From IMG/VR virus record IMGVR_UViG_3300005842_000001, positions 1 to 64,000 of that record: 64,000 bases of DNA. One strand, given 5' to 3'. The notes beneath the pieces are model-generated. The model had not been told where the DNA came from. It ran no database searches and was given only the letters and a program-made list of their open reading frames with translations. Below are positions 21,033 to 39,765 of this stretch, piece after piece. The DNA comes from a virus. Numbering within the stretch: position 1 is the first letter of the stretch; every line of letters begins with the position of its first letter. Made by a program: the position numbers and the translations under genes.

Positions 21033-21680
21033 ATGAGCGAAGAATCACAGACACTGATTCCACCAAGAGAAGATCGACCGAAGCGCAAGCCTTCAGTTGA
21101 CAAGATGGTGATTGAGTACCGCAGAATGTTGGTGGCTCAAAAGTATTTGCGCGGGCAGTCAATGGACAAGATTGCTCAAGAGATGCCCCCAGAGTTGGCT
21201 TGCTCAAGAAGTTCTGTTTACCGTGACTTACAAGCGCTTCGTGAGATATGGCGAAAAGAAGCCAACCTGCCTATTGCAGACATGCGAGCAAAAGAACTCG
21301 CCAAGATCGATGAGCTTGAACGAACTGCATGGGAAGCGTATGAGATAAGCAAGGGCGACAAGATCGTGTCTCGATTCGGTACAGTGCTGCCAGCGACTAC
21401 AGCAGGAAGCAAGCCATCAGTGACTGGCGCCCACACTCGGACGATCACAAAATCAACCGCTGGTAATCCGCGCTTTCTAGAAATGATAGAAAAGTGCATC
21501 AATCGTCGGTGTGAAATCTTAGGTCTCAAACGTCAAACGACTCTCGATCCTATGGCTGACATGCCCATACTTGGCATATCATTCATCGTCCGTAAGCCAC
21601 AAGAGCCAAAGCAGATCGAAGCAACACAATTGGATTCAATGGAACCAAGCAATGACGGCGAGAATGAACCAACTGCCTGA
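21033..21680 (+). CDS. terS: terminase small subunit (putative, HTH)
   Basis: HTH-like YLRGQSMDKIAQ..SRSSVYRDL; GNPRFL...RRCEILGL; directly upstream of terL. Confidence 0.7.
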   Translation: MSEESQTLIPPREDRPKRKPSVDKMVIEYRRMLVAQKYLRGQSMDKIAQEMPPELACSRSSVYRDLQALREIWRKEANLPIADMRAKELAKIDELERTAWEAYEISKGDKIVSRFGTVLPATTAGSKPSVTGAHTRTITKSTAGNPRFLEMIEKCINRRCEILGLKRQTTLDPMADMPILGISFIVRKPQEPKQIEATQLDSMEPSNDGENEPTA

Positions 21681-23130
21681 GCCGCCATTCTGGAACCCGC
21701 TGGCAACTCAGAACGAAAAAGACCCAACCGTAAACCCCGGCAAGTTTTCGTGGATGGGTTCTGATGGTCGTGTGTACTTTGATCTACATGAGGGGCAAGA
21801 GAAAGCTCTTGAGAGTGAAGCAAGATTCATTGCGATCATTGCTGGCACTCAGTCGGGTAAGACAGAAAGTGGACCGCCTTGGCTCTATAACGAAATAGCA
21901 AAGCGTGGCCCTGGCGATTACATCGTTGCATCACCTACCTATCCGTTGCTTCAGAAGAAAGCTCTCCCAGCGTTCATTGAGCTATTCGATACCAAGCTGA
22001 AGCTCGGTCGATACTTTCCAGGTTCAAAGCAGTTCAAGTTTTCCAAAGAAGGATCGAGACGAATCTTTGGACGCTATGTCGACGAAAAGACCATCGTGTT
22101 CTTCGGTCATGCTCAAGACCCAGAGAGCTTGGAGTCAGCGACAGCGAAGGCAGCGTGGCTTGATGAAGCGGGACAACGCAAGTTCAAGCTGGCGTCATGG
22201 GAAGCGTTGCAGCGACGTTTGGCGATGCACATAGGCCGGGCGTTCATCACCACGACGCCTTACGATCTTGGCTGGCTCAAGAAGCAAATCTATGACCGCT
22301 GGAAAGCTGGCGACAAAGATTATGAAGTGATCAACTTCCGTTCGACGATGAACCCGGCTTTCAGTCTGAGAGAATACAACCGGGCAATGAAGACACTGCC
22401 CCGGTGGAAGTTCGATCTGTTCTATAACGGCATATTTACCCGCCCAGCCGGTGCGATCTATGATTGCTTTGAAGAGAAAAAGCATACTTGTCCACGGTTC
22501 GCCATCCCTGATCATTGGGAGCGATTGCTCGGAGTCGATTTCGGCGGCATCAATACTGCTGGCGTGTTCTTTGCCAAAGAGCCGAATACGGGGCGGCTGT
22601 TCGGTTATCGAGAGTACAACAAAAACTATTTCAACGGTGTCTTGCACGAGGGACTACCTCACACTGGCGGCACTTTGTCATGCAAGAAGCACGTTGAGAA
22701 TCTGCTCACTGGTGAAGTGATGATACCTTATGCCGTGGGCGGGGCTAAGTCAGAAAATCAATGGCGTGAAGAGATGCGAAGCGCTGGGCTTCCGGTTCGT
22801 GAGCCTGATCAGAACGAAGTAGAAATCGGCATTGGCCGGGTGTATGGCGGCATCAAAGAGAACCTGGTGGTGTTCTTCGATGATCTGATTTACACGCTTG
22901 ATGAGTTTTCCACTTACTCACGAGAGATGGACGATCAGGGAGAAGTCACCGAAGAGATTGAAGATAAAGAAACGTATCACCATCTTGACGCCTGTAGATA
23001 TATATTAGGCGACGAGTTCAGAGACATACTGACATGGAAGGATATGAAGACTGGCGAAGATCATCAAGAATCTGTAAATCAATACACAGCGCATCGTCAA
23101 TCGGCCAGTGAAATCCTGAAGACTCTCTAA
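21664..23130 (+). CDS. terL: terminase large subunit
   Basis: Walker A AGTQSGKT, Walker B AAWLDEAG, motif III ITTTP, RNase-H-like GVDFG and HHLDACRY; start uncertain (21571/21652/21664). Confidence 0.92.
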   Translation: MNQLPEPPFWNPLATQNEKDPTVNPGKFSWMGSDGRVYFDLHEGQEKALESEARFIAIIAGTQSGKTESGPPWLYNEIAKRGPGDYIVASPTYPLLQKKALPAFIELFDTKLKLGRYFPGSKQFKFSKEGSRRIFGRYVDEKTIVFFGHAQDPESLESATAKAAWLDEAGQRKFKLASWEALQRRLAMHIGRAFITTTPYDLGWLKKQIYDRWKAGDKDYEVINFRSTMNPAFSLREYNRAMKTLPRWKFDLFYNGIFTRPAGAIYDCFEEKKHTCPRFAIPDHWERLLGVDFGGINTAGVFFAKEPNTGRLFGYREYNKNYFNGVLHEGLPHTGGTLSCKKHVENLLTGEVMIPYAVGGAKSENQWREEMRSAGLPVREPDQNEVEIGIGRVYGGIKENLVVFFDDLIYTLDEFSTYSREMDDQGEVTEEIEDKETYHHLDACRYILGDEFRDILTWKDMKTGEDHQESVNQYTAHRQSASEILKTL

Positions 23131-23143
23131 GTCAGGAGCAATC

Positions 23144-23476
23144 ATGCAAGTTGTCGTCCTGCTCGTCAAGGATCACATTCAGTACAAGTGTCCTGCTTGC
23201 GGCTGGCATGATCTGCCTGTGAAGGTGAACGTAAAAGAAAACAGATCATGGGAATGGAACGGCGATTTAGAAAAGCCGACGATCACTCCATCAGTGAGGC
23301 ACTTTCACAACGGCATGCCAGCAGAAGGCATCAAGCCTTTTTGTTGCCATTACTACATCAGAAATGGCGTGTTTGAGTTCCTGCCTGATTGCACTCACGA
23401 CAAGGCCGGGCAAACTATTCCAATGACACCGTACACAGATGCGGAAGTTAAACTTCATTCACTCGAAACGAAATAA
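23144..23476 (+). CDS. DUF6527-like Zn-binding protein
   Basis: CPACG.H..WEWNGD.EKPT.TPSV..CHYYIRNG..FLPDCTH..AGQT. Confidence 0.7.
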   Translation: MQVVVLLVKDHIQYKCPACGWHDLPVKVNVKENRSWEWNGDLEKPTITPSVRHFHNGMPAEGIKPFCCHYYIRNGVFEFLPDCTHDKAGQTIPMTPYTDAEVKLHSLETK

Positions 23477-23485
23477 GGGACAGTC

Positions 23486-26400
23486 ATGAATCAATTACCA
23501 ATGAATCCTGGCAACGACATGACCGACGTTCGCATCAAGTCGGGACTATTCGGCGGCATGGGCGGTATTGGCCGACAGATGGGCCGGGTGATGTACCGCA
23601 CCGGGCAGTTCCTCGGTGTCATGCCTTGGGAGACGCCGAGACGTTCACAGATCGGGGTCGATCCCATCGGTGAAGAGTTCATGCTCAATGAGGATCAGCA
23701 AGCTAAGGCCCGCTTGATGGGTCAGAAAATCTATCACGAGTTTGTTGCTGGTCGTTTCAGCTTCTTGTCCAACGACGATGGCAAGAGCAACGAAACGCCT
23801 CAGATGCGTGAAGAATACTGGAAGTTTGCAGTCACAGAGCCAGCGCTTGACGCTGCTCTGTGGACAAAGATCACCGCAGTCATCGCCAATGAATTGATCA
23901 TCAAGCCATCATCGAAGTCAGGCTTTGATCGATACATTGCCGATTGGGTGCATGACTGCATTATCAGATGCAAGGGCGGCTTGCGCAACATCGGTGAGCA
24001 GATTCTCTTTCATGGTCAAGTGTACGGCAATGTGTTATGTGAACCGAAATGGAAGCACGAGCATCGGCAAGTCCACTCAACGATGTTCCCTTATGGTTTC
24101 TGGACGCTGAAGGATTTCGTTGCAAAGCCACCGGGCGATTACAAATTGGAAATCGATGGCTTCAGAAACATCACCGGCGTCTGGTCGGCAAAAACTGCTG
24201 AATGGTTCGATCCTACTTACTTCGTTTATTGGGCTCACAAGCCGATCTATGGCAACATGGGCGGCACGTCGGGCGTTCGCAGTGTCAGACGAGCTTGCAC
24301 TCTTCTAAAGCTGGCCCACAACTATCGAGGCATCTACCTTGAGCAGTTCGGCTTGCCGATGATCAAGGCGACTTACCCCCAGAACGATGACGACTCTCAG
24401 CGCATCGCAAGAGCAGCGATTCAACACGCTCGATCACTCGGCTACATCTTGATACCAGAAGGTGTTGACGTTGAGGCATTGACACTGGCACAGCGCGGCG
24501 AGTCTGACTATCAGGATGCCATTGACGATTACCGAAAAGAAATCTTCCTTGGGCAGACAGGATCGTACCTGTATGCGATGGAAGGAAGCGTAGGTCATGC
24601 TGCTGGCAATTCAGAGACTCACCGCAGTACGCTTGATCTGTGGGTTGGGTATCTCAGCAAGATTCTGGAAGAGATTCTCAATGATCAGATCATTCCCTGG
24701 CTGATCACGCTAAATATATACAACGCTGATCCGCCACGAGCTATGATCGGCGGCGTCAACGATGAAGATTTGAAAGCATCACTTGAGGTTGACGATAAAT
24801 TGATTAGCTGGGGTGTTGAGCTTGATGAAGATGAACTACGAGATCGCTACCACCGATCAGCGCCAAAGAATGGCAAGGGCATTGGCGGCATGAATCGCTT
24901 GATGCTTGGGATGAACAATGGCATGGGAGCAAACAATGTACAAGGCAACCCGTTCGCTGGGCAAGCCGCTTCATTCCCGTTGCAGAATCAGGGGCAAGCC
25001 GCGAATAACAATACACCGCCGCAAAGAGATGATCAGACAGTTAAGTTCTCAGCAGATGACGAGGACTTTACACAGCAGCAAAACTATACTTGCGGAACGG
25101 CATCACTCCGATTCGCCATGAACCATTTTGGTGTCACTCCGCCTGAAGAAAGTGTGCTGTCCCTATTACTTGGTACGACACCAGCACAAGGCACGAATGC
25201 AGCCTCAATCGTGAGGCTGGCAAAGCAGAATGGGCTAGAGGCTGAAGGCCAGTCCAACATGACAATGCTCGAAATGTCAGAGCGTCTGAAGGATGGGGCA
25301 GTCGTACTGGCTCCCATTCAGAAGTTCGGGTCACCTGAAGAGAAAGCGAAGAATCAGACTGGTCACTGGATCGCTGTAACACGTCTTGATGGTTCAAGCG
25401 GTATGCTTGAATACTTCGATCCAGTTTTGGGCAGTGACAAGCCCTGCTGGGAGTCGTTGCAGACGTTCGCTGCCAACTGGCATGATCGAGATGGTGATGG
25501 GAAGATGTTGCCCAGGTATGCGATCACGATCAGCGAACCTAAAAAAAAAATGACATTCAGCACCGATGATCTGCAACTTGGATACATCTCGATTCCGCTG
25601 CCTGAGTTCGCTGAAGCAATCCAGAAGGTGCAAAGCGCGATCGATCCTGCTGACTTGATCAAGACTGAGAATGATCATCATATCACGTTGCTTTATGGTT
25701 GTGGCGCTGACAGCTTCGATGACAGCGTGAAGCTCTGCGCTAGCATTGCACCAATCAAGATGACTTTTGGCGGCACATTCACACTGTCGCCAAAAGATGC
25801 GGACCATGACGTTCTGGCGTTCAAAGTCTATGGCGATGCTCTTGAGAAAGCAAACTACAGTCTCGCCAGCGGGTTAGAAGTCAAGCAAGACTACGATACC
25901 TTCCAGCCCCACGTCAAAATAGGGCGGCTCAAACAAGGGGCAGGGTCAAAATATACTTCACCATCATTTGCGGGCTTCTCAGCATTGCTGGGCGATTCCA
26001 AGGTGGCTGAGTCTGCTCAGTTCAAGGTAAAGGGTGGTGAAGCGTTAAGCCTCCCTTTTGCCGCAGTGTCTGATTTACCAGTTCTGAAGTTCTCAGAAGA
26101 GCCAGCAAGCGATGAAGTTGCCAAGCCGGGTAAAGATGGCGACAAAGCAGATAAGCTGCTACAGAACGTCAAGGAAGACGGTACAGCGATCCTGGCTCGA
26201 CTTTGCAAAATGGCATATCGCCGCATGCTTGATAATGGCGTTGGTGGCAGTCAGCTATTCACGATGCAAGAGAGGAACGAACTCACCGAAGCATTCTTGG
26301 GCTGTGTGATCAATGCCAATCTGCTTGGTCGATCATCCACCATCAGCAAGTTCCTGAGAGACCAAGATGAATCGAGAGTTGATCGATTCGCTGATGAAAC

Positions 26401-27793
26401 GCCATTCGATGCGTTTTCATCTGCCCTTGATCCTTTGCGCCCTGAGCTAGCGATTGATTATTTCAAAAATCTGTTCCCGATGATCGGCGTTGATCCAGTG
26501 GCGTACATTCCGCAGATGAGGCGATATGCCTTCACGTTGGCGGTTGCAACCGAGACAACTCTTCTTGGTAAGGTTCACGATCTACTGACTGATGCACTAC
26601 ACGAAGGAACGCTTGACACTCAATTCAAGATCGATGATCTGCTAAAGAAGACTGGCGTGGCTCCTGAAAACCCGCAGTACAGTGAAATGGTTTTCAGGAC
26701 GAACATGATGGACGCCTACACGACTGGCACGACAGATCAGGCAAAAGACCCGACCATTGCCGAAGCGTACCCGGTGTGGCGATACGATGGCATCGACGAC
26801 GAACGCGCTGGGAAAGATCATCGCCCCAAGTTCGGGAAGTATTATCCATCGTCAGCAGAGTTTGCTGATGTTCGTGGTGATCGTCCTTATAACTGTGTTC
26901 TCCCTGGGCAGATGACACAGGGAAGAATCAATGGGGCATTAAAAGCCCACTATTCTGGCGAAGCGGTCGAGATTTATAGTGACAGTGGTGATATTATTTC
27001 CCTGACCGTCAACCATCCCGTATTGACCGATAGAGGCTTTATTCGTGCTGGCGAAGTGAAGGAAGGAGATTATCTTGTCAGCTATTCCGGGGAACATCAA
27101 ATCCCTGTTCTTGGTGAAGACTATCAATACTTTCCAACCTTGATCGAAGATGTATTTGAGACGATTAGTGTAGTTAAAGGTAGGTCGGCTAGGGCTTCTG
27201 CCCCAGTTTCCCTTTTCAAGCTCTATGGCGATGAGTTGTTCCTTGAAAGCAAGATCGACGTTGTAGGCTCCTATCGGGAATTGCTGTTCAATGGTGTGCC
27301 CCATGATTCTGAGCGTGTTCGCAACTCTATCCTCTCTGGGGCTACGGTGAAGCTGCATGGCATACCACGAAGCAGCACGCTTCAATTTAACAGCCATGCT
27401 GTCAGTCATCCCTCTTCTAGCGGCGTGGGCCTTAGCGACTTGCTTGGCTCTGATGCGTTTGCTCATCAAACTCCATTTAGTCTTTTCTGCTTCGGATCGG
27501 CCTCGCACCTTTATTCCCAATTTGACGAATTGCTTTCTAAGACAACTTCTGTCGATGTTCAGTTTGTCGGCAAGAGCCTTCATGGAGGCACCGGCAAGGT
27601 AGCGTTTAGCAAGGCGAGAAAGATTAGGAATTTCCATTACGATGGTCCTGTGTTTGATTGCTCAACTGATGTTGGATATTTTATAGTAAATAACATCTTC
27701 ATTTCAAATTGCCGCTGCTGTCCTACGATGATCTACAAGACAACATGGCAACAGTTGCAGGATCAAGGTAAGAGCGTAGAGACAAGCTGGTAG
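23486..27793 (+). CDS. portal (DUF935/Mu gp29-like) - C39-like peptidase - 2H phosphoesterase - MuF (gp30-like) fusion, intein-containing
   Basis: Portal signature YLEQFGLP..IPEG.DVE..LGQT..SETH; Q.NYTCG..GHW..YFDP; HIT/HVK; MuF AFTLA, VFRTN, YDGIDD.R..H, PYN|CRC. Confidence 0.88.
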   Translation: MNQLPMNPGNDMTDVRIKSGLFGGMGGIGRQMGRVMYRTGQFLGVMPWETPRRSQIGVDPIGEEFMLNEDQQAKARLMGQKIYHEFVAGRFSFLSNDDGKSNETPQMREEYWKFAVTEPALDAALWTKITAVIANELIIKPSSKSGFDRYIADWVHDCIIRCKGGLRNIGEQILFHGQVYGNVLCEPKWKHEHRQVHSTMFPYGFWTLKDFVAKPPGDYKLEIDGFRNITGVWSAKTAEWFDPTYFVYWAHKPIYGNMGGTSGVRSVRRACTLLKLAHNYRGIYLEQFGLPMIKATYPQNDDDSQRIARAAIQHARSLGYILIPEGVDVEALTLAQRGESDYQDAIDDYRKEIFLGQTGSYLYAMEGSVGHAAGNSETHRSTLDLWVGYLSKILEEILNDQIIPWLITLNIYNADPPRAMIGGVNDEDLKASLEVDDKLISWGVELDEDELRDRYHRSAPKNGKGIGGMNRLMLGMNNGMGANNVQGNPFAGQAASFPLQNQGQAANNNTPPQRDDQTVKFSADDEDFTQQQNYTCGTASLRFAMNHFGVTPPEESVLSLLLGTTPAQGTNAASIVRLAKQNGLEAEGQSNMTMLEMSERLKDGAVVLAPIQKFGSPEEKAKNQTGHWIAVTRLDGSSGMLEYFDPVLGSDKPCWESLQTFAANWHDRDGDGKMLPRYAITISEPKKKMTFSTDDLQLGYISIPLPEFAEAIQKVQSAIDPADLIKTENDHHITLLYGCGADSFDDSVKLCASIAPIKMTFGGTFTLSPKDADHDVLAFKVYGDALEKANYSLASGLEVKQDYDTFQPHVKIGRLKQGAGSKYTSPSFAGFSALLGDSKVAESAQFKVKGGEALSLPFAAVSDLPVLKFSEEPASDEVAKPGKDGDKADKLLQNVKEDGTAILARLCKMAYRRMLDNGVGGSQLFTMQERNELTEAFLGCVINANLLGRSSTISKFLRDQDESRVDRFADETPFDAFSSALDPLRPELAIDYFKNLFPMIGVDPVAYIPQMRRYAFTLAVATETTLLGKVHDLLTDALHEGTLDTQFKIDDLLKKTGVAPENPQYSEMVFRTNMMDAYTTGTTDQAKDPTIAEAYPVWRYDGIDDERAGKDHRPKFGKYYPSSAEFADVRGDRPYNCVLPGQMTQGRINGALKAHYSGEAVEIYSDSGDIISLTVNHPVLTDRGFIRAGEVKEGDYLVSYSGEHQIPVLGEDYQYFPTLIEDVFETISVVKGRSARASAPVSLFKLYGDELFLESKIDVVGSYRELLFNGVPHDSERVRNSILSGATVKLHGIPRSSTLQFNSHAVSHPSSSGVGLSDLLGSDAFAHQTPFSLFCFGSASHLYSQFDELLSKTTSVDVQFVGKSLHGGTGKVAFSKARKIRNFHYDGPVFDCSTDVGYFIVNNIFISNCRCCPTMIYKTTWQQLQDQGKSVETSW
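26939..27637 (-). CDS. antisense-encoded HTH + DUF559/Vsr-like endonuclease nested inside the intein
   Basis: YLAGASMKALA..I.RS.LR....GI.VR (HTH); SPRE..V...EQQFPIG.YNVDLA...IAIELE.G.W...GWKVL (DUF559-like); AGGA 8 nt upstream. Confidence 0.75.
   Translation of the reverse strand: MEIPNLSRLAKRYLAGASMKALADKLNIDRSCLRKQFVKLGIKVRGRSEAEKTKWSLMSKRIRAKQVAKAHAARRGMTDSMAVKLKRAASWYAMQLHRSPREDRVANTLRIMGHTIEQQFPIGAYNVDLAFKEQLIAIELEKGNWGRSPSRPTFNYTNRLKYIFDQGWKVLIVFTKNRDLMFPGIADKIISFLHFASTNKASIGQYGMVDGQGNNITTVTINLDRFARIVGF
27638..27707 (-). promoter_or_regulatory. sigma70-like promoter and RBS for the antisense endonuclease
   Basis: Minus strand TTGAAA (27707-27702)-N18-TAAAAT (27683-27678); AGGA at 27649-27646. 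Confidence 0.55.
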
Positions 27794-27888
27794 CTGGTCA
27801 TTGCCCAGAGTGTTCCTACTATGAAGACAACGCAACATGGCCCGGAGTTGCTGAAACGTGTCGAGGTAAGTTGGTAGCTTGGAGGCAA

Positions 27889-28242
27889 ATGATGCAAGCC
27901 TTACCGCCCCCGGACAATGATACATTCACCACTCTCTTGAGGGCATTAACTGCTGGTGTGCTGGGCATGATAGGTGCGAGCTTCTCTTCCTTAGATCGAG
28001 CAGTGAAGGGGAAAGAAATGTTCTGGCACCTGGGCTTGTCACTGTTTCTCTCTGGACTTACTTTTTGCACGTTGGTATCTATCTGGCCAGGTATTTATTG
28101 GATCGTGTGGCTTCTTCCTTCGTTCGTGATCGGCTTCTGTGTCTACGGCATTGCAGTTGCATTGAAAAAAAACAGCAAGTCTGCCGAAGACTTCGACGTT
28201 ACTAAAGTCATCAAAAAGAAAACAGGCATAGAAGGAGATTAG
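27889..28242 (+). CDS. three-TM membrane protein, holin candidate
   Basis: Three hydrophobic helices, highly charged C-terminus; GGAGG RBS with tandem Met starts. Confidence 0.5.
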   Translation: MMQALPPPDNDTFTTLLRALTAGVLGMIGASFSSLDRAVKGKEMFWHLGLSLFLSGLTFCTLVSIWPGIYWIVWLLPSFVIGFCVYGIAVALKKNSKSAEDFDVTKVIKKKTGIEGD

Positions 28243-28245
28243 GTC

Positions 28246-28626
28246 ATGTTCGTGATTCTCTGGGTGCTTGACAACATTGGAACCGCGCTCACAGTTGCAG
28301 CGGCTTTAGTAATCTTTGCGGTCGTTTGCGTACCGATGAGTCACCGACCTATAATTGAAAGAGTGTTCGGATTGTTCATCGGAATTTCGACGATGGGATC
28401 AGCACTTGATCGTTTTGCGCAGGTCATGGCTCAATATGACGTAGATGGTAGCGTTCGTTGCGTGGCTATGCTCATCTTCGATATTTCAAAAATGGGCATC
28501 GTGATTACAGGCGGCATGTTGCTCTATCGGTATATCGTGATGAAGAGAATGAACTGCGCTAGTGCTGATCGTTATGTGAAAAAATTGTCTGATCAAAAGA
28601 CTCCATTTTTTGCGGTGTCTCATTAA
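28246..28626 (+). CDS. membrane protein
   Basis: Three hydrophobic segments; AAGGAG RBS. Confidence 0.6.
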   Translation: MFVILWVLDNIGTALTVAAALVIFAVVCVPMSHRPIIERVFGLFIGISTMGSALDRFAQVMAQYDVDGSVRCVAMLIFDISKMGIVITGGMLLYRYIVMKRMNCASADRYVKKLSDQKTPFFAVSH

Positions 28627-28679
28627 GCTACGAATCGTGCCAGTGGTAAAACGCTGGCACGAATTATGAAAGGTAGAAG

Positions 28680-31600
28680 TTGATGCGAACTATTACGCAG
28701 TCAATTGTGCGCAGGAGAGCGCAAAGTGCGATTCTAGGTCAACGTGGCTCCCTCACGCCGCCATTCTATGCCGGTGCTGTTTCAATCGCACCGCCACTGT
28801 CGTCAAGGTATCTTGCCTACCACGAAGGCTCCCTGGGCGTTCTCGATGGTAGCGGCAACCCGCAAACTACTGCGTTCGGCATCGTCGGCACATGGCAGGA
28901 CCAGAGCGTCAACGGCAACCATCGCGTTCAGTCCAACAATGCTCTCCGCCCATTTGCCCGTACAGCCAGCACGCCTGGACTCAAAGTCGTACCAGCAGTC
29001 TACCCGTTCACAGATAACGCTAGAGCGCTTCCTTGTTCGACAATCATCATCGACAAACGAAACACGTCGTTCTATGCCATCGTCGACACCGATTATCAAG
29101 TTGCCTTCAATAATGCAGAATCAAGGGTACTTTGGTCAAGCAGTGCTGGCACGTTGCAATATGATTTAGCATCCTTGAGCTTTGGAAGGCTTCAATGGGT
29201 AGATGCCGGGGGAACGCACGATACTGGACTACGACTCTCGGCAGGATGGAATCTCGTTGGGGTGCAACTACTTGCAACAGCGGTCGTGGTCTGGGTCAAC
29301 GATCAAAGCGTTTCTTATGCTGCTCTCAGTGCCGGCACGGTCACAGGCGACATACTGTTTAACAATGCTGGCGGGGTATCAAGTTGGAAGGGAAGTTGCC
29401 CGGTGGCTGTTCTGCACACTCCCGCCATTACTGCTGGCGAAAAGTCTTCCTTGATTGATCCGTGGGCCAGAAGCCGAAGAGTGAATTACACGACATCAAC
29501 CACCCCGCTCTTGATCGGTTTCGGCAACTCGCTGGCTTCTGGATTATCCGCAAAAGATTGGCAGGGCTACCTCTGGCAGTGCGATTACGGCGACGCGCTT
29601 TACCACAATGTTGCATTTGCCGGCAAGCAGTGGACTGATGCGAACGATCCACTGAATCTAAATGGCGTCAATCTTAATGACATTAACAGGCTTGGCATCT
29701 GTCTCGGTGATCTTGGGACAAATGATATATATTTAGGAGTCCCGGCAGCCACAGCGTTCGCCAATCGTTCTACTGTGATTGCCAGATTGCGTGCTGCTGG
29801 TCTGTTTTTCATTGAGCTATTACTCACCCCTTCTTTGGGGATTGTGAATGCAGGGCATGAGGCAGAGAGACTTGCCTATAATGCGTTGGTGCTGGCGGAA
29901 ACTGATAGGGTTCACAGTAACTATAAGATCGGCATTCCAGCTAATCTTGCTGACTATAGCAACCTTGATTATTACACTGTTGATGGTGTGCATTACACCA
30001 GGCTGGGGCATGCTCAGTATCCGCCTGAGTTCCAGTCTGCATTGAATTCAGTGCTTGCGTTGAGAAGCCAGGTCAGTACGCTGCAAGCTAAGTATTATTT
30101 CAATGGCGATTATTCTGACAGCACCATTTACACCAGAGACTTGACAGTCATCACAGGAAGTCCGTCTTTCAGTGCTGGGATTGGCGGACAACAGCGACTC
30201 ACTCTCGTCAAGGCATCCAGTCAAAGCGTCTCCCACATTGTTGCCAGTAGTGGAAACAATCCGGGTGTCTTTGACTGGTATCCAATGACGATTGCGTTTT
30301 GGTTGACTACGACCAATTCAACAAGTGGTACGATCATAGCCAACAGTGACAATGCCGGCGTTGGCTTCAATTGCTATCTCGATACGCATGGCCAGATTCA
30401 TTTCGACTTGGTTCGGCAAGCAGCGGCAGGCAGTGTCGCATCAGGGCCAACGTCATTTGCAGTTAATGACGGCGTGACACGGTTTGTTGCTATTGTCATT
30501 GATTCAGCCGGAGTGAGGATTTATGTCTCTCCTACCTCCAACCCTGCCCTTGCAGGACTGGAAACATCGACGGCATGGACTGGCACTCCTGGGAAGTTTG
30601 TGCCGTCCAGCCGGGCATTGCGTATAGGCGTGGATCAAGCCGGAACTACTTTCACCGACATGTCGATGCAGACGTGTTACTTCTTTGCGGAATCTAAGTC
30701 ACTGGTAGACCTGCAAGCACTTCAGGCGATCCCCGGAACAGCAGCGCCAGAACCACCAGTTTTGACCACTGGTGTTTACACGACAGGAAGTATGCCGGTC
30801 ACTGCACTCCCACCGCTGAACCACAACAGTACAATTACGCTCTACAAGTTCTACATAGCTTTGCACAGCGGGGGAGCGCATCCTGATGATTTCACCCTTG
30901 CTGGCACTTCTGTCACACCCAATTTCACATACACAGTTACTGACGGTCAGGACTACCACATCAGATGTACGGCAGTAAATGCAATTGGCGAAAGTGCCGA
31001 TAGCAATGTTGTGACGTTTACCGCTACCGCTGTTTCGTCAGTGGCCGGAGCTACAGTGATATTCGATGCCTGGGTTGGCCCTTACACTGACGATGGAGTA
31101 ACGCTCTGCACTGCCAGCGGCGACAGGATTAAGCAACTCACGAATCAAGCCGTGGCTAACTACGGATCGCAGCCGACCGCCAACCTCCGGGGCGTCTACA
31201 AGATGTACCGGCAGAACGGGCGGCCAGCGATTCAGTTCAGCGGTGGCCAGTTCCTGAAGTTCTTGAACGCGATCAACACCTGGCCTTGCACGGTTGCTAT
31301 CGCCGGGTATTGGCGGGACTTTACCGGCGTCAATGGTCGCATCTTGGGACTAGGCGGCCCGCAGAGCTTGTTCAGTACCGGCACCAACTGGACAGCCTAC
31401 GCCATACCAGGCGGGTTTACTCAAGACCTGGGGGCCAGCGCATCAGTTCCTAAAGTAGCTGTCATCCGCTTCGATCATTCAGCGGCCTGGAAAGTTTGTT
31501 TCAATGGTGTGCTTGGCGGCAACCTCCAATTTAACGCTGCGGCATCCGGCAATCTTGCTATCGGTGCTCACGGTGACGATGGCGGGGAATGGGCTGATGT

Positions 31601-31697
31601 TGAGTTTTATCGCTTCAAATTCTGGCCCAGCATTCTCAATGATGCCAATGTGCTGCTGGCCGCTGCCGAAATGAACAGCCTGCTGGCGATTTACTAA
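28680..31697 (+). CDS. LamG/ConA-like + SGNH esterase + FN3 multidomain virion or receptor-binding protein
   Basis: SGNH blocks GNSLASG, LGTND, DGVH; W.DQS.NGNH and LamG-like strands; FN3-like Y.I.CTAVNAIGESADS. Confidence 0.7.
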   Translation: MMRTITQSIVRRRAQSAILGQRGSLTPPFYAGAVSIAPPLSSRYLAYHEGSLGVLDGSGNPQTTAFGIVGTWQDQSVNGNHRVQSNNALRPFARTASTPGLKVVPAVYPFTDNARALPCSTIIIDKRNTSFYAIVDTDYQVAFNNAESRVLWSSSAGTLQYDLASLSFGRLQWVDAGGTHDTGLRLSAGWNLVGVQLLATAVVVWVNDQSVSYAALSAGTVTGDILFNNAGGVSSWKGSCPVAVLHTPAITAGEKSSLIDPWARSRRVNYTTSTTPLLIGFGNSLASGLSAKDWQGYLWQCDYGDALYHNVAFAGKQWTDANDPLNLNGVNLNDINRLGICLGDLGTNDIYLGVPAATAFANRSTVIARLRAAGLFFIELLLTPSLGIVNAGHEAERLAYNALVLAETDRVHSNYKIGIPANLADYSNLDYYTVDGVHYTRLGHAQYPPEFQSALNSVLALRSQVSTLQAKYYFNGDYSDSTIYTRDLTVITGSPSFSAGIGGQQRLTLVKASSQSVSHIVASSGNNPGVFDWYPMTIAFWLTTTNSTSGTIIANSDNAGVGFNCYLDTHGQIHFDLVRQAAAGSVASGPTSFAVNDGVTRFVAIVIDSAGVRIYVSPTSNPALAGLETSTAWTGTPGKFVPSSRALRIGVDQAGTTFTDMSMQTCYFFAESKSLVDLQALQAIPGTAAPEPPVLTTGVYTTGSMPVTALPPLNHNSTITLYKFYIALHSGGAHPDDFTLAGTSVTPNFTYTVTDGQDYHIRCTAVNAIGESADSNVVTFTATAVSSVAGATVIFDAWVGPYTDDGVTLCTASGDRIKQLTNQAVANYGSQPTANLRGVYKMYRQNGRPAIQFSGGQFLKFLNAINTWPCTVAIAGYWRDFTGVNGRILGLGGPQSLFSTGTNWTAYAIPGGFTQDLGASASVPKVAVIRFDHSAAWKVCFNGVLGGNLQFNAAASGNLAIGAHGDDGGEWADVEFYRFKFWPSILNDANVLLAAAEMNSLLAIY

Positions 31698-31706: not shown

Positions 31707-34013
31707 ATGAAAACATTACTTTCCTTGCTGCTGATTCTTTTCAGTAGCACCGTTGCAGCCCAATCCCCCATCGCCTTATCGACGAGCGATCCCAAGTTTG
31801 CGCCACACTCAGAGATCATACCAAAACCGATAGCAGCGCTGGCGTTTGGCACTAGAGGCCCAGGCTATGCTAACGGTTCACGTCCTGCTGGCCGATTCGA
31901 TGTTGCGTATGCTCTCGTCGATGAACAAAGCAAGCTGTCGCCACTGTCAAAGCCAGTAACAATTGCATCATCGTCATCCGACTGGGATATTGTGGTGTCG
32001 ACGCCGGTGCTTGATCTGTGGACACGCGCGATCGGAACGATGTGGGTATACAGAGCAACAGGAACAGCCGAATGGAAGTCTCTCGGTTGCAATCGTAACT
32101 GTGTAGTGCCATGGGCAGCGACTCGACCATTTATGCCGCTTGTAGGTTGGGATCATTCGTTGGGTGGCTTTCAACTCTTCTCAACACAAAACTTCTGGCC
32201 GACATTCAGTGATGTTTACTGGAAACAAACATCGACGCTGGCACAACCACCACCGCCATCGGTTCGTTTGCTTTCATGCCCGAACATTGCTTTAGAAGCT
32301 GCCTATTCGTGGGCATGCAATGAAGGAGAGACGCCGTTATCAGACGTAACAAGTATCGCTGCTGTTCCTGGCAATCCTGCAACGATTCATGCACCATGTC
32401 AGTTGTACCGCAACATTATACCACCACAAGGCGCTCTCGGTTCTTACGTCTATTTGAGAGTGCCGGGTGGTCAGTGGCATCGTCAAAAATCCCATCAATC
32501 AGCAGACAGCTATCTATGGCCGATTGACTCAAATCAATTACCGATCAATGAATATGTTGAAACAGGCGTCAAGCCCAGCGGCATCGTCGGCAAGTCATGG
32601 CTTAGTTCAATCCATCTGGCGATGCGTGATTGGCGACGAGACGTGATCATTGACACCGATCAGACTATTTGCTGCCCGGTAATTTCAGCTTATGATGGGC
32701 CAAGTTGGGTATATGACCCACGCAATCAGCAGATCGCTTTTGGTGTGAATGCTTTTGCTTACCCCAACGAAGGATGGACTCTATCAATTGATGGTGTCAC
32801 AAGCGGCTACCTTCGCCCTACGTCCGGCTGGCAAACTTGGCAGCAAGTCGCTGATACTGCATTTGGCCCCGGTAATGTTGAGCTTCGATATGGTAGCGGC
32901 TTTGGTGGCGTGGTGATCGTTTTCACTGGCAAGTATGCAGCGACAGACATGACGAATCGCATCAAGACTGATTTCACGAAACTTTATCAGATCAACAACA
33001 ACGATGCTAGCAAGCCGCTAATGGATACATCAGTACCGCCAAAGCCGATTCCTTTTGCAGTTCCTATAGTCGATTCCTATACTCAGTCAGCGCGTAGTTG
33101 GTACATGTCAGCAGGTGGTCAGAAGTTCAATCGAACGATTGCAACAGGAAATGGCGGTGGGTGGGTTCTCAGTGACACAGCGACGACGCCAGAAGGCAAG
33201 TCGAGCTATCCTGGTGACTGGCCTTTGTGGGTAGAGAACAGCCAGCGAACTCGACTGATCGGTTGCAAGATGACACGGAACCAGTCCAATTGTGGAATAG
33301 CTTTTATAGATCATTCAGGCGGCGGTGCTTTTTCATTCACAGCGAAAGATTGTGCTTGCTCTGCTGGCGTAGGAAATAATGGCAACACTTATGGAGTTCG
33401 ATGTACCTGGACAAGCAGAGGGCCAGCTTGGAACAACCATTCAGCGTCTGAGCCATATTTTGAAAACTGTTCTTTCCAAGCGAAACACTGCATAGTCTGT
33501 GAAGGTGGCCAGTCAGTCAACTGGTTATTCAACACTACCTACGGCGCTGGTGATGGCACCATTGAATCTTCAATCGTCACACAAGCCAACTCAGGGGCTA
33601 TGTCTTTCAAAGGCAGAACAAACGTCGATAACTCACGCACCATCGGCGCTATGACATGGGCAGGAAAGGTTGACATTGAAGGCATTTGGCTCGATCAGGG
33701 TGTACCGTGTTGGTTTACGATCACCGGCAACACGTTCCCAGCCATGTCGATCAATGGTACCAAGATCAATCAGTGGCGTGATTGGCTACATGTCATCGAA
33801 GCGCCGACAGGCAGCATAGGCTATCCGGTCAATTTGACGTTGAGCAATCTCGATTCTCAGTTCAATGGCCAGCCGGTAACAATGCTTGCATCGACTCGTG
33901 ACATGCTTACCGTCACTCAGAAAGACCCGGTGAACTTGCTTGCAAATCTTGTGAAGACGGGACTTGTCACGATTCCAGTACCTGTTAAAAAGCAAATGCT
34001 ACGAAGCAGATGA
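31707..34013 (+). CDS. signal-peptide-bearing large beta-rich protein
   Basis: MKTLLSLLLILFSSTVAA signal peptide; C-terminal half has beta-helix-like N/C/G ladders. Confidence 0.65.
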   Translation: MKTLLSLLLILFSSTVAAQSPIALSTSDPKFAPHSEIIPKPIAALAFGTRGPGYANGSRPAGRFDVAYALVDEQSKLSPLSKPVTIASSSSDWDIVVSTPVLDLWTRAIGTMWVYRATGTAEWKSLGCNRNCVVPWAATRPFMPLVGWDHSLGGFQLFSTQNFWPTFSDVYWKQTSTLAQPPPPSVRLLSCPNIALEAAYSWACNEGETPLSDVTSIAAVPGNPATIHAPCQLYRNIIPPQGALGSYVYLRVPGGQWHRQKSHQSADSYLWPIDSNQLPINEYVETGVKPSGIVGKSWLSSIHLAMRDWRRDVIIDTDQTICCPVISAYDGPSWVYDPRNQQIAFGVNAFAYPNEGWTLSIDGVTSGYLRPTSGWQTWQQVADTAFGPGNVELRYGSGFGGVVIVFTGKYAATDMTNRIKTDFTKLYQINNNDASKPLMDTSVPPKPIPFAVPIVDSYTQSARSWYMSAGGQKFNRTIATGNGGGWVLSDTATTPEGKSSYPGDWPLWVENSQRTRLIGCKMTRNQSNCGIAFIDHSGGGAFSFTAKDCACSAGVGNNGNTYGVRCTWTSRGPAWNNHSASEPYFENCSFQAKHCIVCEGGQSVNWLFNTTYGAGDGTIESSIVTQANSGAMSFKGRTNVDNSRTIGAMTWAGKVDIEGIWLDQGVPCWFTITGNTFPAMSINGTKINQWRDWLHVIEAPTGSIGYPVNLTLSNLDSQFNGQPVTMLASTRDMLTVTQKDPVNLLANLVKTGLVTIPVPVKKQMLRSR

Positions 34014-35606: not shown

Positions 35607-36269
35607 ATGACTTCCCAGCTACAACGTCCAATCATTTCTACCAAACTCCTGTTGCAAGTTGCCGCCGTTGGTGGCACATTACCTCAGACATTCAAATCGT
35701 CTCTATACCCTTCGCTCTTTGCCATGGCGAAGGGTGCAGTAGCGAACATCACTGATAACAGTTCTAATTTCTGGGCAGTTCGATTGTGGGAACGTGAGAA
35801 AGTATCCTCATTGCGCTGGCTGGCGATTGAAGGTGTTACCCCTGGCGCTGGCACTATCGGCATTGCTATTGCTTTGGTGCCTCGAATCACACCGATTCAC
35901 GGCATTGCCGCTGCTGATGCTGCTGACAATAAGGCAGTTATCGGGTCTGGCAGGTCATTGGCTCGAATTGCACGAGCCACATTAACTGTCGATTCAGCGT
36001 TGATTATTCCTTCCGATTCGTATGAACCATTTACAGGTGCAACTCTCTTGGGTTCGCCGCCGAGAGCTTTACGGCCATTCTCAGGCATCACATGGGCAAG
36101 ACGTGATTCTTCTATCCAGTTTGCCGATGATGGTTTTGCCACTGGAAACATCGGGCAAATCAATCTCGATCTGAGCTATACCGAGTTCGTTTGTGTGTCA
36201 GTCGAAGCCATCTCTTCGGGTACTCCGATTGGTGGCGTTGCTTGCGGCATCGACATTGAATCTCAGTAG
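35607..36269 (+). CDS. hypothetical protein
   Basis: AGGAG RBS; 220-aa ORF. Confidence 0.6.
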   Translation: MTSQLQRPIISTKLLLQVAAVGGTLPQTFKSSLYPSLFAMAKGAVANITDNSSNFWAVRLWEREKVSSLRWLAIEGVTPGAGTIGIAIALVPRITPIHGIAAADAADNKAVIGSGRSLARIARATLTVDSALIIPSDSYEPFTGATLLGSPPRALRPFSGITWARRDSSIQFADDGFATGNIGQINLDLSYTEFVCVSVEAISSGTPIGGVACGIDIESQ

Positions 36270-36280: not shown

Positions 36281-37828
36281 ATGCCAGCGGTTTTGGACAA
36301 CGAAAAAATAAAAAATCAGGAAATTGTCAAGCCCTCAAAGATGTACCGGGTTGAGCGTGTTCGTCTATTTGAATCAGGCAACCACAAGGGCATCGTCTAC
36401 GAAAAAAAAGACATTGATGATGCTGTTAATAATTTCAACGCATTCAGCACACCAGAAGTACACAAGCTGGAAGTTCCAATTGTTCTCGGACACGAGGAAG
36501 CGCAAGTCCTACTTGATATGACTGGCCACCCTGCGGCGGGCTGGATCGAATCAGTTTGGGCCGAATTAGAGGGCATTGAAGAGCCTTTCATCGACGACAA
36601 TGGCAATGTGAAATGGCGTCAACGTGAAGCCTATTTTCTGTACGGGAACTTTTACAAAGTCCCTGAAGATGTAGCACAGTGGATCGTGGATGGAGCATAT
36701 AGATATTTATCTTGCGAGTTCAGCAAACGAGAGAAGCCACCCGCTGGCGTCCCGGCGATTGGCCCGATGCTGCTGCGCGTTGCGATTCTTGGTGCTACAC
36801 AGCCTCACGTCAAAAGTTTAGGACCACTGCCCTCCCCGATTCCTGATTACTCTGTAAACTTGTTTTCAGACAGTGATTCAGCAGCCTGTGACATTGTAAC
36901 TTTGCTACTCCCCATCAAGGGAGCAACTTGCTTCAGTGAGGATAAAGCCATGAACGATGCGATGATGAACGCTCTTGCTGCTCAAGGTATCCCTCCTGAA
37001 GCCTGTAAAGTTTTGGCTTCTATCGATCCCACCAAGTATGCTTCAGTCGGCAAGGCTTTCTCTGAAGCTGGCAATCCTCAACCGCCTCAACCCGGTGGTC
37101 AGGCTGGCTCTTTTGATCGTGCTGCTACGATTGAAAAGCTCAGCGCATTGCCCAACGCTGATCGTGACGCCATCGGCAAGATGAGTGATGATGAACTCAA
37201 GTCGATGTACAGCAAGTCCAAGTTTGCTGATGGCGGTGGCAACAATGCTCCTGGCAACAATGACGTTGCCAATCCTGGCACCGGTGGCAATGGCACTCAG
37301 AAGCCATCTTTTGCCGCTGATGACAAGAAGGACGATCAGAAGTTTTCAGTGATCAACCAAAAGACCAAGGAACTCGAAAGCGAAATGATCGAGTTCCGGA
37401 AGTGGCGTCAAAGCACTGAGGGCAAGTTGAACGCTGAAGCGAAACAACGTGCTGATGCCGAATACGCTGCAACGTGCAAAGAGATTGATAAGTTTTGCAC
37501 CGATCAAGTTGCTGCTTTCCGCATTACTGCTCGTGAGGCTCCGCTTCACGCTAATGCAATGAAGGAGATGGCAAAACTGCCAACCTTCAAGACGGATGTG
37601 GTCAAGTTCAGCGACGACAAGGGCAAAGAAGTTACTGGTAATCCTGTTGAGGCGTACAAGGCGACAATTCTTGCCCGTAGTGTGATGAAGTTTTCTCAAG
37701 ATCGAATTGTCTCACCTGCCCCAGGTGGCAAGGAACTCACCCGCGCTCAACGCATGATCGCCGGTTCACGAATCGGCAAAGATATTGCCGAGATGAACCG
37801 TAAGAAGGCAGCGACTGCTACCAAGTAA
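36281..37828 (+). CDS. Mu gpI-like prohead protease with C-terminal scaffold
   Basis: PIVLGH, PAAGWI, YRYLSCEF, LLRVAILGA.QP.VK.L motifs followed by a low-complexity/coiled-coil scaffold. Confidence 0.85.
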   Translation: MPAVLDNEKIKNQEIVKPSKMYRVERVRLFESGNHKGIVYEKKDIDDAVNNFNAFSTPEVHKLEVPIVLGHEEAQVLLDMTGHPAAGWIESVWAELEGIEEPFIDDNGNVKWRQREAYFLYGNFYKVPEDVAQWIVDGAYRYLSCEFSKREKPPAGVPAIGPMLLRVAILGATQPHVKSLGPLPSPIPDYSVNLFSDSDSAACDIVTLLLPIKGATCFSEDKAMNDAMMNALAAQGIPPEACKVLASIDPTKYASVGKAFSEAGNPQPPQPGGQAGSFDRAATIEKLSALPNADRDAIGKMSDDELKSMYSKSKFADGGGNNAPGNNDVANPGTGGNGTQKPSFAADDKKDDQKFSVINQKTKELESEMIEFRKWRQSTEGKLNAEAKQRADAEYAATCKEIDKFCTDQVAAFRITAREAPLHANAMKEMAKLPTFKTDVVKFSDDKGKEVTGNPVEAYKATILARSVMKFSQDRIVSPAPGGKELTRAQRMIAGSRIGKDIAEMNRKKAATATK

Positions 37829-38712: not shown

Positions 38713-39765
38713 ATGGCATACGACATTCCCGATCTGGTAGCGTTGCAGGAAGTCGAGCAAGAAATCCTGCCCGTTCTCACGATGAATGATCCTTTGTTTG
38801 ATCTGTTCCCTATCGACAGCGAAAATGCTTCGATGATCGAATGGGAACAGAAGGACAACTTTGCTGGCCTGATGGCTGTCCGTGGCATCAATGGCAACCC
38901 TGGCCGAGTCCAGAAAGTGGGTTCAAAGACCTACTCAATGGAACCCGGCTACTACGGTGGCTTCACTCCGCTTGACGAGAAGGAACTCACCAAGCGAAGA
39001 TCGCTCGGCACGTTTGATGAGCCGATCAACATTGATGATCTGATCACAGAAGCTCTTGAGCATCTGATGACTCAGCAGATCAACCGACAGCGGAAGATCA
39101 TCGCTGATCTGATCACCACTGGCACGTTCAGCGTCACGAACGAATTGACTGGCTCAATCGATCACACTGACAGCTTCACGCTGCCAGCTTCGACCGCTTC
39201 GATTCCTTGGACGACTGTTGCAACTGCAACTCCTTTGCTCAACATTCGTGCTGCCATTGCTACCCGCATTGGTTACAGCTACGATTTTGGCAAAGAAGCC
39301 ATCATGTTGATGAATCAGAACACCTACAACAATTTCATCAACAACGCCAACAGCGCTGATCTTGCTGGCAAGCGGGCTTCGTATGGTCAGACTTATCAGA
39401 GTGTCGGTAATCTCAACGACTTGCTGGCGGCTGACAACCTGCCTCAGATTCTGGTCTATAACGAATCTTACTTGGCTACCCCAAGCTCAACGCCTACGCT
39501 GTTGATTCCTGATGGTAAGGTTGTGATCTGCGGCAAGCGAAAGACTGGGCGCTCTCTCGGTAACTTCACAGTGACGAGGAACGCCAATCACCCTGACATG
39601 GCGGCTGCACCTTACTTGTGGATCGTTGACCCGTTCCAAGCTGCCTCTGGCAACATCCTTCCTTCGTCTGGGTCGATTCCTCGAACCATCGAAGTTCACC
39701 GGGGCTTCAATGGTGGCGTCAAGTTGCCCTTCCCTGGTGGCATCTATGTCTTGACCGCCTACTAA
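38713..39765 (+). CDS. major capsid protein (lambda gpE-like family)
   Basis: Position, 350-aa size, and LFDLFP..IEWE..LMA.R..W....ATPL..I....IPDGKVV...P pattern. Confidence 0.85.
   Translation: MAYDIPDLVALQEVEQEILPVLTMNDPLFDLFPIDSENASMIEWEQKDNFAGLMAVRGINGNPGRVQKVGSKTYSMEPGYYGGFTPLDEKELTKRRSLGTFDEPINIDDLITEALEHLMTQQINRQRKIIADLITTGTFSVTNELTGSIDHTDSFTLPASTASIPWTTVATATPLLNIRAAIATRIGYSYDFGKEAIMLMNQNTYNNFINNANSADLAGKRASYGQTYQSVGNLNDLLAADNLPQILVYNESYLATPSSTPTLLIPDGKVVICGKRKTGRSLGNFTVTRNANHPDMAAAPYLWIVDPFQAASGNILPSSGSIPRTIEVHRGFNGGVKLPFPGGIYVLTAY

Follow-up and report, generated by a model that had tools for sequence, protein, structure and literature searches.

Introduction

T4 Acb1, a 2H-fold phosphodiesterase that acts against the cyclic-oligonucleotide-based anti-phage signalling system (CBASS), is a small free protein. 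That phages load enzymes into their heads and deliver them along with the genome is an already published principle. The main texts of Iyer et al. 2017 (PMC5512222) and 2022 (PMC9503650) describe polyvalent proteins, polypeptides with several enzymes whose genes lie in the head region and which are joined to the portal or MuF protein, and explicitly include 2H domains fused to MuF or portal; for these they predict injection, and a role either against nucleotide signalling or as RNases. Here we describe P0001, a protein encoded in a stretch of 64,000 nucleotides (the window) covering positions 1 to 64,000 of the IMG/VR virus record IMGVR_UViG_3300005842_000001. P0001 joins at least two disparate effector domains, in a head-gene context and linked to portal and MuF, and is a bona fide member of this published class. 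It differs from the polyvalent proteins of those main texts in carrying a C39-like cysteine peptidase, in the location of its cargo between portal and MuF, and in the presence of an intein in MuF.

Four peptidase superfamilies are listed for polyvalent proteins in the main text of PMC5512222 (zincin-like, assemblin-like, DD and LonC), none of them papain-like, the zincin-like metallopeptidase being the releasing peptidase in other polyvalent proteins. The words “C39” and “papain” do not occur in the main texts of PMC5512222 and PMC9503650, although their supplementary lists may differ. In the MuF polymorphic-toxin systems, as presented by Zhang et al. 2012 (PMC3482391), MuF likewise serves as a head-targeting module for enzyme cargo; that survey has a papain-like Tox-PL1 domain in fusion with MuF and also defines a Tox-PL-C39 toxin domain. 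Those systems reside in prophage remnants and have their cargo C-terminal to MuF, whereas in P0001 the cargo follows the portal and precedes MuF, and the phage genome is complete, with direct terminal repeats. For the portal of phage Mu, gp29, the last 124 amino acids (aa) are missing from the virion structure, and the authors credit cleavage by protease I in the account given in PMC11915804. Finally, non-canonical “anti-sense VSR-like HEN” (homing endonuclease) inteins are reported, in the text available as bioRxiv 10.1101/2025.01.02.630785, for minor capsid proteins of actinobacteriophages.

Architecture and family of P0001

The gene is a single open reading frame (ORF; 1435 aa, ATG start) without internal stop or frameshift. 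Its features are given below, with the evidence for each; J1 to J4 are copies of a junction motif, slashes mark splice junctions, HMM stands for hidden Markov model (our own profiles cover five domain types only), and pLDDT stands for predicted local distance difference test, as given for the AlphaFold2 (AF2) model.

23486..27793, + strand: whole polyvalent head-protein gene (P0001); ORF, spanned by the X2 contig
23486..24880, + strand: Mu-type portal domain, aa 1-465; Portal_Mu, phrog_113, own HMM at aa 60-465
24881..25060, + strand: N/Q/G-rich linker ending in J1 (FSAD, aa 521-524, nt 25046-25057); sequence, low pLDDT
25061..25543, + strand: C39-like cysteine peptidase, aa 526-686, with Q530, C536, H627 and D645; Pfam scan of the region alone, VIA, conservation
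25556..25567, + strand: J2 (FSTD, aa 691-694), placed in the linker from C39 to 2H; motif, block pLDDT 62
25583..26083, + strand: LigT-like 2H phosphoesterase, aa 700-866, with H732-x-T734 and H809-x-K811; HMM, AF2, fold searches
26090..26101, + strand: J3 (FSEE, aa 869-872), placed in the linker from 2H to MuF; motif, model residues 354-356 with pLDDT below 50
26123..26893, + strand: MuF N-extein, aa 880-1136, holding J4 (FADE, aa 968-971, nt 26387-26398); Phage_Mu_F, phrog_220, own HMM
26894..27709, + strand: class-1-type intein, 272 aa (aa 1137-1408), at PYN/C...SN/CRC; Pfam, collinearity, X3 allele
26939..27637, - strand: antisense ORF P0172, 232 aa, helix-turn-helix (HTH) plus Vsr/DUF559-like PD-(D/E)xK nuclease; Pfam, ESM Atlas, antisense conservation
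27710..27793, + strand: MuF C-extein (CRCC..., 27 aa) and stop; collinear with the intein-free P0002 to the last residue

The portal domain matches Portal_Mu (PF06074) with 134 bits against a cut-off of 23.9, over aa 118-455 and profile positions 10-334 of 336. Modelled by AF2 on 53 sequences, aa 515-870 form a C39 fold followed by a 2H fold, with a mean pLDDT of 90.5. A contig of 5729 nt from another sample (run X2) covers 23100-28169 with 8 differing letters and zero gaps and, because it spans the ORF without a gap, the fusion is not an assembly artefact. Searching 5.8 billion proteins for homologues of P0001 gave 21 matches among 8000 scored candidates. Six of these, P0002-P0007, from ENA and Logan assemblies and with 43-70% identity, have the same four domains in the same order. 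Closer relatives are L002/P0022 (97% protein identity) and L003 (96%). With our own HMMs the order PORTAL-C39-2H-MUF is read in all eight family members (P0001, P0022 and P0002-P0007).

More distant relatives have other arrangements: L004 and L006 have separate portal and MuF genes, L007 encodes a plain portal-MuF fusion of 813 aa, and P0008 is a portal-MuF-intein protein of 2051 aa. By sequence, this looks like an evolutionary series from split genes through a plain portal-MuF fusion to cargo-bearing fusions, which gives the enzymes the appearance of having been inserted into the linker that joins portal and MuF. Among cultured phages no close relative of P0001 was found, only partial matches to MuF or the intein, and a scan of genome contigs for a host link returned only one portal fragment, at 29% identity, from a Limnoglobus metagenome-assembled genome. 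Phmmer searches against PDB gave nothing useful with the whole of P0001, the head maturation protease or the antisense ORF as query. P0006 carries an extra Cys-rich insert, CPICG...C...C, between C39 and 2H (aa ~650-700; alignment A1, columns 729-775), possibly a small zinc ribbon.

The initial annotation, made from the DNA letters and their translations, had proposed a 1435-aa ORF combining a portal, an N/Q/G-rich linker, a C39-like peptidase, a 2H domain and MuF. The single ORF and the order of the four domains are borne out by the HMMs and the AF2 model; the linker is present at aa ~466-520, and the positions quoted for C536 (nt 25091), H627 (25364), H732 of the HIT motif (25679) and H809 of the HVK motif (25910) are exact. 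The checks that it called for concerned an artefactual fusion, the folds and the cargo of related portals: the X2 contig and the homologues exclude the first, the model shows both folds, and cargo is present in P0002-P0007, against a plain portal-MuF fusion in L007 and split genes in L004 and L006. Its reading of the C-terminal region as MuF stands in part, since aa 1137-1408 are an intein that carries the antisense nuclease ORF.

The 2H phosphoesterase domain

It is certain that aa 700-866 have the 2H fold. In VIA the 2H half compares best with Deinococcus radiodurans CPDase (Z 16.4), TT0787 (15.7), Usb1 (15.7) and Escherichia coli LigT (15.0), Foldseek agrees, and among predicted viral structures (BFVD) LigT-type phage proteins dominate ranks 1-15 of the neighbours. 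Acb1 is not among the Foldseek PDB matches listed nor in the 50 VIA rows. The Pfam family 2_5_RNA_ligase2 (PF13563) gives 21.1 bits (E 3.4e-4) for the window's copy against a cut-off of 27, and phrog_755 “RNA ligase” matches with E 6e-4. Of 9 relatives that were scanned, 7 pass the PF13563 cut-off (30.5-41.3 bits), P0002 (23.0) and P0073 (15.2) falling below. H732, T734 and H809 are invariant across the P0001 family. The first motif is HIT, and the second is HVK in the window and HxT in L002, L003 and P0002-P0007. The codon of residue 811 (25916-25918) is AAA (Lys) in the window and ACG (Thr) in L002 and L003, a difference of 2 nt, and contigs of runs X1, X2 and X3 are identical to the window there. 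Because these runs agree and the relatives keep HxT, K811 is a real allele of this lineage and not a feature of the family; the motif described initially as a degenerate HVK is thus present, as a lineage allele only.

The same annotation had called the domain Acb1-like. Behind this stands the proposition that the domain works as Acb1 does, breaking down the cyclic-oligonucleotide signals of CBASS or of other systems, and that it enters the cell ready-made from the head; we regard this as doubtful. T4 Acb1 and P0001 have in common the 2H fold with two catalytic His, and Acb1 models occur among the BFVD neighbours at ranks 16, 22, 42, 47 and 50. Matches to the Pfam Acb1 family (PF23474) are found at sub-threshold level in 6 of the 9 relatives (14.5-18.1 bits, with no match listed in the other 3); of the 47 C39/2H proteins sampled, 6 have sub-threshold-to-weak ones, the best with E 5.5e-6. 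The phage genome encodes neither the RNA ligase PF09414 nor RtcB, partners that would complete an RNA-repair pathway, and the same prediction is printed in PMC5512222 and PMC9503650, in their main texts, for 2H fusions to portal or MuF. Yet every scanned sequence with a match to Pfam Acb1 is below the cut-off of 27, the window itself with 12.2 bits and E 0.15. LigT, CPDase and Usb1 come first in all three fold searches; K811 alters the second HxT motif in the window lineage; and a fold does not reveal a substrate. Membership of the Acb1 family is thus not supported, and the domain is best described as a generic LigT-type 2H phosphoesterase.

The C39-like peptidase and its clade

Scanned alone, the C39 region exceeds the Pfam cut-offs of Peptidase_C39 (26.4 bits; cut-off 22), C39_2 (26.5; 24) and DUF3335 (26.7; 25). 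The C39 half of the model superposes in VIA on PCAT1, PeiR, LahT150 and ComA with Z of 17.4-18.3 (PCAT1 18.3, PeiR 17.9-18.1, ComA 17.4) and root-mean-square deviations of 2.0-2.8 Å over 130-146 residues. Q530, C536 and H627 are invariant in the P0001 family, and D645 is replaced by Glu in P0007. The fold and the Q/C/H/D residues are thus common to P0001, the C39 leader peptidases ComA, PCAT1 and LahT150, and PeiR. True C39 substrates carry Gly-Gly at the cleavage site. P0001 differs from the leader peptidases in that its C39 domain is flanked by portal and 2H, with no ABC transporter domain in the protein, and in that no Gly-Gly is conserved at any junction in seven aligned family members. 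Gly-Gly cleavage sites at the junctions were accordingly set aside.

An exhaustive, profile-free search with aa 515-870 as the query places this domain in a large clade (1811 representatives at E <= 1e-3, 153 at E <= 1e-10). Its domain content was sampled by running Pfam on 47 of the best 150 homologues, in all of which the Cys, His and Asp are invariant. C39 is found in 44 of them, 2H in 12, portals of three Pfam families in 12, MuF in 11 and inteins in 3; ADP-ribosyltransferase (ART), NUDIX, sigma-70 and SET domains also occur, and Pfam AvrRpt2 (C70) matches 28. The architectures read by our own HMMs include PORTAL-C39, PORTAL-C39-H2, PORTAL-C39-MUF and PORTAL-MUF-C39, together with MUF-C39 (11 proteins), H2-C39 (11), MUF-C39-MUF (6) and C39-H2 (5), and in 94 proteins these five-type profiles read C39 alone. 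A search for the domain in cultured phages matched only three records, all of uncultured huge phages. No paper with a C39-like peptidase between portal and MuF was found in the literature, although supplementary lists may hold such proteins, and relative to main texts C39-like peptidases appear to be new as a recurrent companion of portal and MuF. The modelled fold alone does not choose among the candidate substrates, which are the polyprotein itself, a host protein or a wall peptide.

Junction motifs and candidate cleavage sites

Four copies of the pattern F-[SA]-[ADEST]-[DEG] are found in P0001 (aa 521, 691, 869 and 968), at domain junctions only; in 5000 shuffles of the protein, P(>=4) was 0.006. 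The window ORFs examined hold 17 copies in 18,473 aa, and 12 of these are in four head-region genes: 4 in P0001, 4 in the protease/scaffold gene, and 2 each in the ORFs at 35607-36269 and 28680-31697. The F-[S/A] core is retained at J1 and at J3 in 7/7 aligned family members, where the linkers are otherwise unalignable. P0064 and P0119 have the same motif after the portal, and two MuF-C39 proteins, P0079 and P0085, a similar F-S-E motif after MuF. In the AF2 model the linkers are of low confidence (pLDDT below 50 for model residues 1-9 and 354-356, mean of 62 for block 171-180).

The C-terminal 300 aa of the protease gene (36281-37828) are low-complexity, helical and scaffold-like, with ~8 F-[S/A] sites. 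The sequence suggests that its product is a protease-scaffold fusion that degrades itself. Mu gpI/gpZ is a self-degrading protease-scaffold arrangement of this kind. The protease itself (phrog_976) has no match to Pfam Mu-like_Pro. We infer from their sequence that the junction motifs are candidate maturation cleavage sites; the recurrence of the motif at every domain junction, and its sharing with the protease/scaffold gene, appear to be new, going beyond the main texts of the cited papers. The portal of P0001 is of the same Portal_Mu family as Mu gp29, which loses its C-terminal 124 aa as described in PMC11915804; it differs in that the Mu tail is short and without an enzyme, and that the protease of the present phage does not match Mu-like_Pro. 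By analogy, linker motifs and Mu precedent together suggest that the cargo is cut off the portal.

Which enzyme would make these cuts is a separate question. According to the texts cited above, polyvalent proteins as a rule contain an embedded releasing peptidase, and so do MuF toxins that bear papain-like Tox-PL1. That the C39-like domain of P0001 is such a protease, cutting the polyprotein at the linker motifs in cis or trans, is conceivable, and we hold it only tentatively: the domain is placed between portal and cargo, its catalytic residues are invariant, and the clade recurs with portal or MuF whatever the cargo, as in PORTAL-C39, PORTAL-C39-MUF, MUF-C39-MUF and H2-C39. It is opposed by the 11 MUF-C39 proteins, most of which end with C39 and have nothing downstream to free, by the 94 proteins in which our limited profile set reads C39 alone, and by the junctions, which lack a conserved Gly-Gly. 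The motif also fills the protease/scaffold gene, a classic head-protease substrate, and just 3 of the 131 other proteins with a C39 domain have it upstream of that domain, so that it was rejected as a general C39 autocleavage site.

Another proposal, which we rate as unlikely, is that the C39-like domain is an ejected cell-wall endopeptidase, a virion-associated lysin that aids the passage of DNA across peptidoglycan. PeiR is encoded by a prophage. This pseudomurein endoisopeptidase is the best solved sequence relative of the domain profile (E 8.5e-16) and, as given above, is close in structure too. The BFVD neighbours include a phi29-type “morphogenesis protein 1 hydrolase”, Lysin A, endolysin and tape-measure entries, and the main text of PMC5512222 describes wall-degrading domains in polyvalent proteins. 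The leader peptidases ComA, PCAT1 and LahT150 score equally well, however, as do the toxins 9l5u and CdiA-CT 8ssk; more than half of the sampled homologues match AvrRpt2, and here again the fold alone does not give the substrate. The combined proposition that the C39 clade is a dedicated and hitherto unrecognised releasing protease for head cargo anchored on portal or MuF, cutting at F-[S/A]-x-[D/E] as the head matures, and that the freed 2H is a time-zero Acb1 analogue that degrades defence signalling nucleotides without any phage expression, is improbable.

The MuF intein and its antisense reading frame

In the window Phage_Mu_F (PF04233), the family of SPP1 gp7, reaches 25.4 bits, under its cut-off of 29.6 because the intein splits the MuF domain; phrog_220 “minor head protein and DNA pilot” matches with E 4e-17, and P0003 and P0007 reach 31.3 and 31.9 bits with PF04233. 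The C-terminal N-C-R-C motif of MuF is restored only once aa 1137-1408 are removed, and the last 330 aa then align end to end with P0002 (76% identity, 2 gaps). The intein starts with CVLPG, has the block-B motif TVNH and ends in ...ISN followed by the +1 Cys; C1, N40, H41 and N272 are invariant in 19 sequences. Its model is confident only at the ends (aa 1-66 and 235-272), pLDDT being near 30 at aa 126-218, and all PDB matches listed by Foldseek are intein, Hedgehog or bacterial intein-like (HINT) structures, with a best E of only 2e-3. An intein-free allele is present in run X3, where one contig (depth 12) passes from 26877 to 27731 by way of 37 replacement letters. The 816 nt that it thereby lacks on balance are exactly the intein, and it encodes ...R-V-F-N-C-R-C... 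over the joint. A second X3 contig (27053-27670, depth 4.4) bears the intein, and therefore both alleles coexist.

This intein belongs to a broad family, with relatives encoded in at least 465 of 592 candidate stretches of IMG/VR. Of 45 full-length inteins, 37 are inserted at N/C-[RGK]-C, and most of the other 8 at N/C-[LVT]-C. The N/C-R-C site of MuF is also occupied in proteins with other portal families (P0008, P0089, P0011-P0015, P0017, P0018 and P0020), and a second MuF site (...N-P-Q-Y/C) is used in P0003 and P0010. The family is also seen at other Cys sites of phage polyvalent proteins (P0071, P0055, P0080 and P0027); the intein of P0071 directly precedes the catalytic Cys-Gly of a C39-like peptidase and that of P0055 is inside the C39 domain.

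P0172, encoded within the intein on the opposite strand, is the longest minus-strand ORF of the whole window. It matches REase_MTES_1575 (E 7.6e-6; 26.4 bits, cut-off 38.2) and DUF559 (E 0.0085), with weak N-terminal HTH matches, and its nearest ESM Atlas clusters are viral HTH plus DUF559 proteins (scores 0.97 and 0.93). No relative was found among predicted proteins, as is expected if gene callers skip an antisense ORF. To survey the antisense strand, 80 intein loci were fetched, of which 12 partial matches were dropped and 68 kept. An antisense open frame of at least 150 aa is present in all 68, and one of at least 200 aa in 67 (median 256.5 aa); in flanks of equal length the respective numbers are 65 and 35 of 123. 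Sense and antisense products were compared for 46 inteins, aligned on the sense protein: that of the window and those of 45 loci whose match covers all of 1-272. The mean pairwise column identity is higher in sense at aa 1-66 (0.43 against 0.25) and aa 235-272 (0.41 against 0.30), and higher in antisense at aa 67-125 (0.33 against 0.28), aa 126-218 (0.29 against 0.18) and aa 219-234 (0.42 against 0.25). The splicing ends of the intein are therefore selected on the sense strand and its centre on the antisense strand.

P0172 is, by its sequence, a putative homing endonuclease. The intein would be a selfish element, with the antisense HTH plus Vsr-like nuclease presumably driving homing into intein-free MuF alleles. 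As they are described in bioRxiv 10.1101/2025.01.02.630785, the actinobacteriophage minor-capsid inteins share with it the MuF-type host protein and the antisense VSR-like nuclease; the present one differs in residing in the portal-MuF polyprotein of an environmental phage. The breadth of the MuF intein family, together with its antisense nuclease gene, appears to be new relative to the texts cited.

Co-conversion was considered as proof of recent homing and rejected as evidence. The intein is 100% identical between the window and L002, and upstream segments are ~91-97% identical, but the identical tract runs from 26468 to 30428, where the contig ends, and is not centred on the intein. Over 23089-26467 the window and the L002 contig have 241 differing aligned positions, gaps included (~93% identity), and from 26468 onward there are zero differences. 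This sharp mosaic breakpoint in the MuF N-extein reflects either strain recombination or a chimeric contig.

Genome context

The phage genome record comprises 72,805 bp in IMG/VR, with direct terminal repeats and a CheckV completeness of 100%. The portal gene is placed in a head module, with the terminase large subunit gene adjacent and the protease and major capsid protein genes downstream:

21571..23130, + strand: terminase large subunit TerL; phrog_2, E 7e-29; the listed ORF has a TTG start
36281..37828, + strand: head maturation protease with scaffold-like C-terminal half; phrog_976, E 5.5e-22
38713-39765: major capsid protein, downstream of P0001

TerL is followed by a small phrog_3362 gene and then directly by P0001, and all genes in the annotated stretches of the window are on the + strand. 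Upstream, the ORF at 21033-21680 (+), which overlaps the 5' end of the TerL ORF by ~110 nt, matches phrog_645 “Rnase E” and occupies the place expected for the small terminase subunit. Downstream of P0001 and separated from it by two small ORFs, the ORF at 28680-31697 (+, 1005 aa) matches Laminin_G_3, a concanavalin-like lectin family, above the cut-off and GDSL-lipase below it. It may encode a fibre, or else one more protein that stays inside the head or is ejected. The next ORF, at 31707-34013 (768 aa), has no family match. Words of the window stretch are present in 14 public runs (X1-X14), all labelled as rhizosphere metagenomes of 2017 and carrying 14 study codes; they may represent one campaign, and X1-X4 are the ones compared with the window.

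Proposed mechanism and its weighing

From the domains observed in P0001, their order, their conservation in relatives and the intein, we infer the following course of events. After translation the intein (aa 1137-1408) would splice out, restoring the N-C-R-C of MuF. By way of its portal part the protein would form a dodecamer whose C-terminal regions point into the head. As the head matures, the disordered linkers, each bearing F-[S/A]-x-[D/E/G], would be cut. The head maturation protease is favoured as the more probable agent, since the motif recurs in its own scaffold-like half; the alternative is the embedded C39 peptidase. Such cleavage would free the peptidase, the 2H enzyme and MuF within the head, to be expelled with the DNA. 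In the host, the 2H enzyme would act on 2',3'-cyclic or 2'-5' phosphodiesters, either of defence signalling nucleotides or of RNA ends, and the C39-like enzyme on a host protein or a cell-wall peptide.

We distinguish class membership, which is secure, from the joint reading that P0001 is a genuine polyvalent head protein of a complete uncultivated rhizosphere phage and is processed and ejected as proposed, which we consider probable, with some reserve. Several points weigh against the latter. Packaging, cleavage and ejection of the cargo are each postulated. The junction motif was defined after the junctions had been seen; its core is missing at J2 in P0003 and at J4 in P0004-P0006, and its scarcity upstream of other C39 domains has been noted above. 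AF2 docked no linker into the peptidase cleft, the linkers being merely disordered. The window's own 2H and MuF scores are under the curated Pfam cut-offs, and its 2H copy may, judging from the sequence, be impaired through the replacement of a conserved Thr by K811. Splicing is predicted only: Pfam Intein_splicing scores 29.5 bits, below its cut-off of 35.8, and the penultimate His is missing, the window intein ending in S-N. Among the 45 related inteins the endings are SN in 27, KN in 9, HN in 5, RN in 2, AN in 1 and GN in 1.

The remaining alternative, that the long ORF is an assembly or frameshift artefact joining separate portal, enzyme and MuF genes such as those of portal and MuF in L004 and L006, is barely credible given the gap-free X2 contig, the six homologues, drawn from ENA, Logan and JGI, that share the fusion, and the uninterrupted frame.

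The initial annotation had held the four-domain arrangement to be undescribed and had proposed that fusion to the portal loads the enzymes into each head at fixed stoichiometry for delivery. The first claim is too broad, as fusions of 2H to MuF or portal and the idea of their injection are in the main texts of Iyer et al. 2017 and 2022, and it appears to hold for the C39-like part, which was not found there. As to the second, placement of the enzymes inside the head is plausible, and a fixed stoichiometry and delivery can be conjectured from it.

Biological significance

To our knowledge, pre-packaged enzymes are the only phage countermeasures present at the moment of DNA entry, and few have been studied experimentally. 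The P0001 family is a compact test case, with 12 copies per head by construction. It could show whether portal-tethered cargo is freed, by which protease and at what sequence, and whether the targets of a virion-borne 2H enzyme are immune signalling nucleotides or RNA ends. From the survey of its peptidase, C39-like peptidases in phage head fusions emerge as a large group that seems not to have been catalogued. The MuF N-C-x-C motif is a major homing site of inteins in environmental phages, with the nuclease gene on the opposite strand, and this pairing of intein and antisense nuclease is a rare instance in which selection acts on two reading frames whose codons are complementary.

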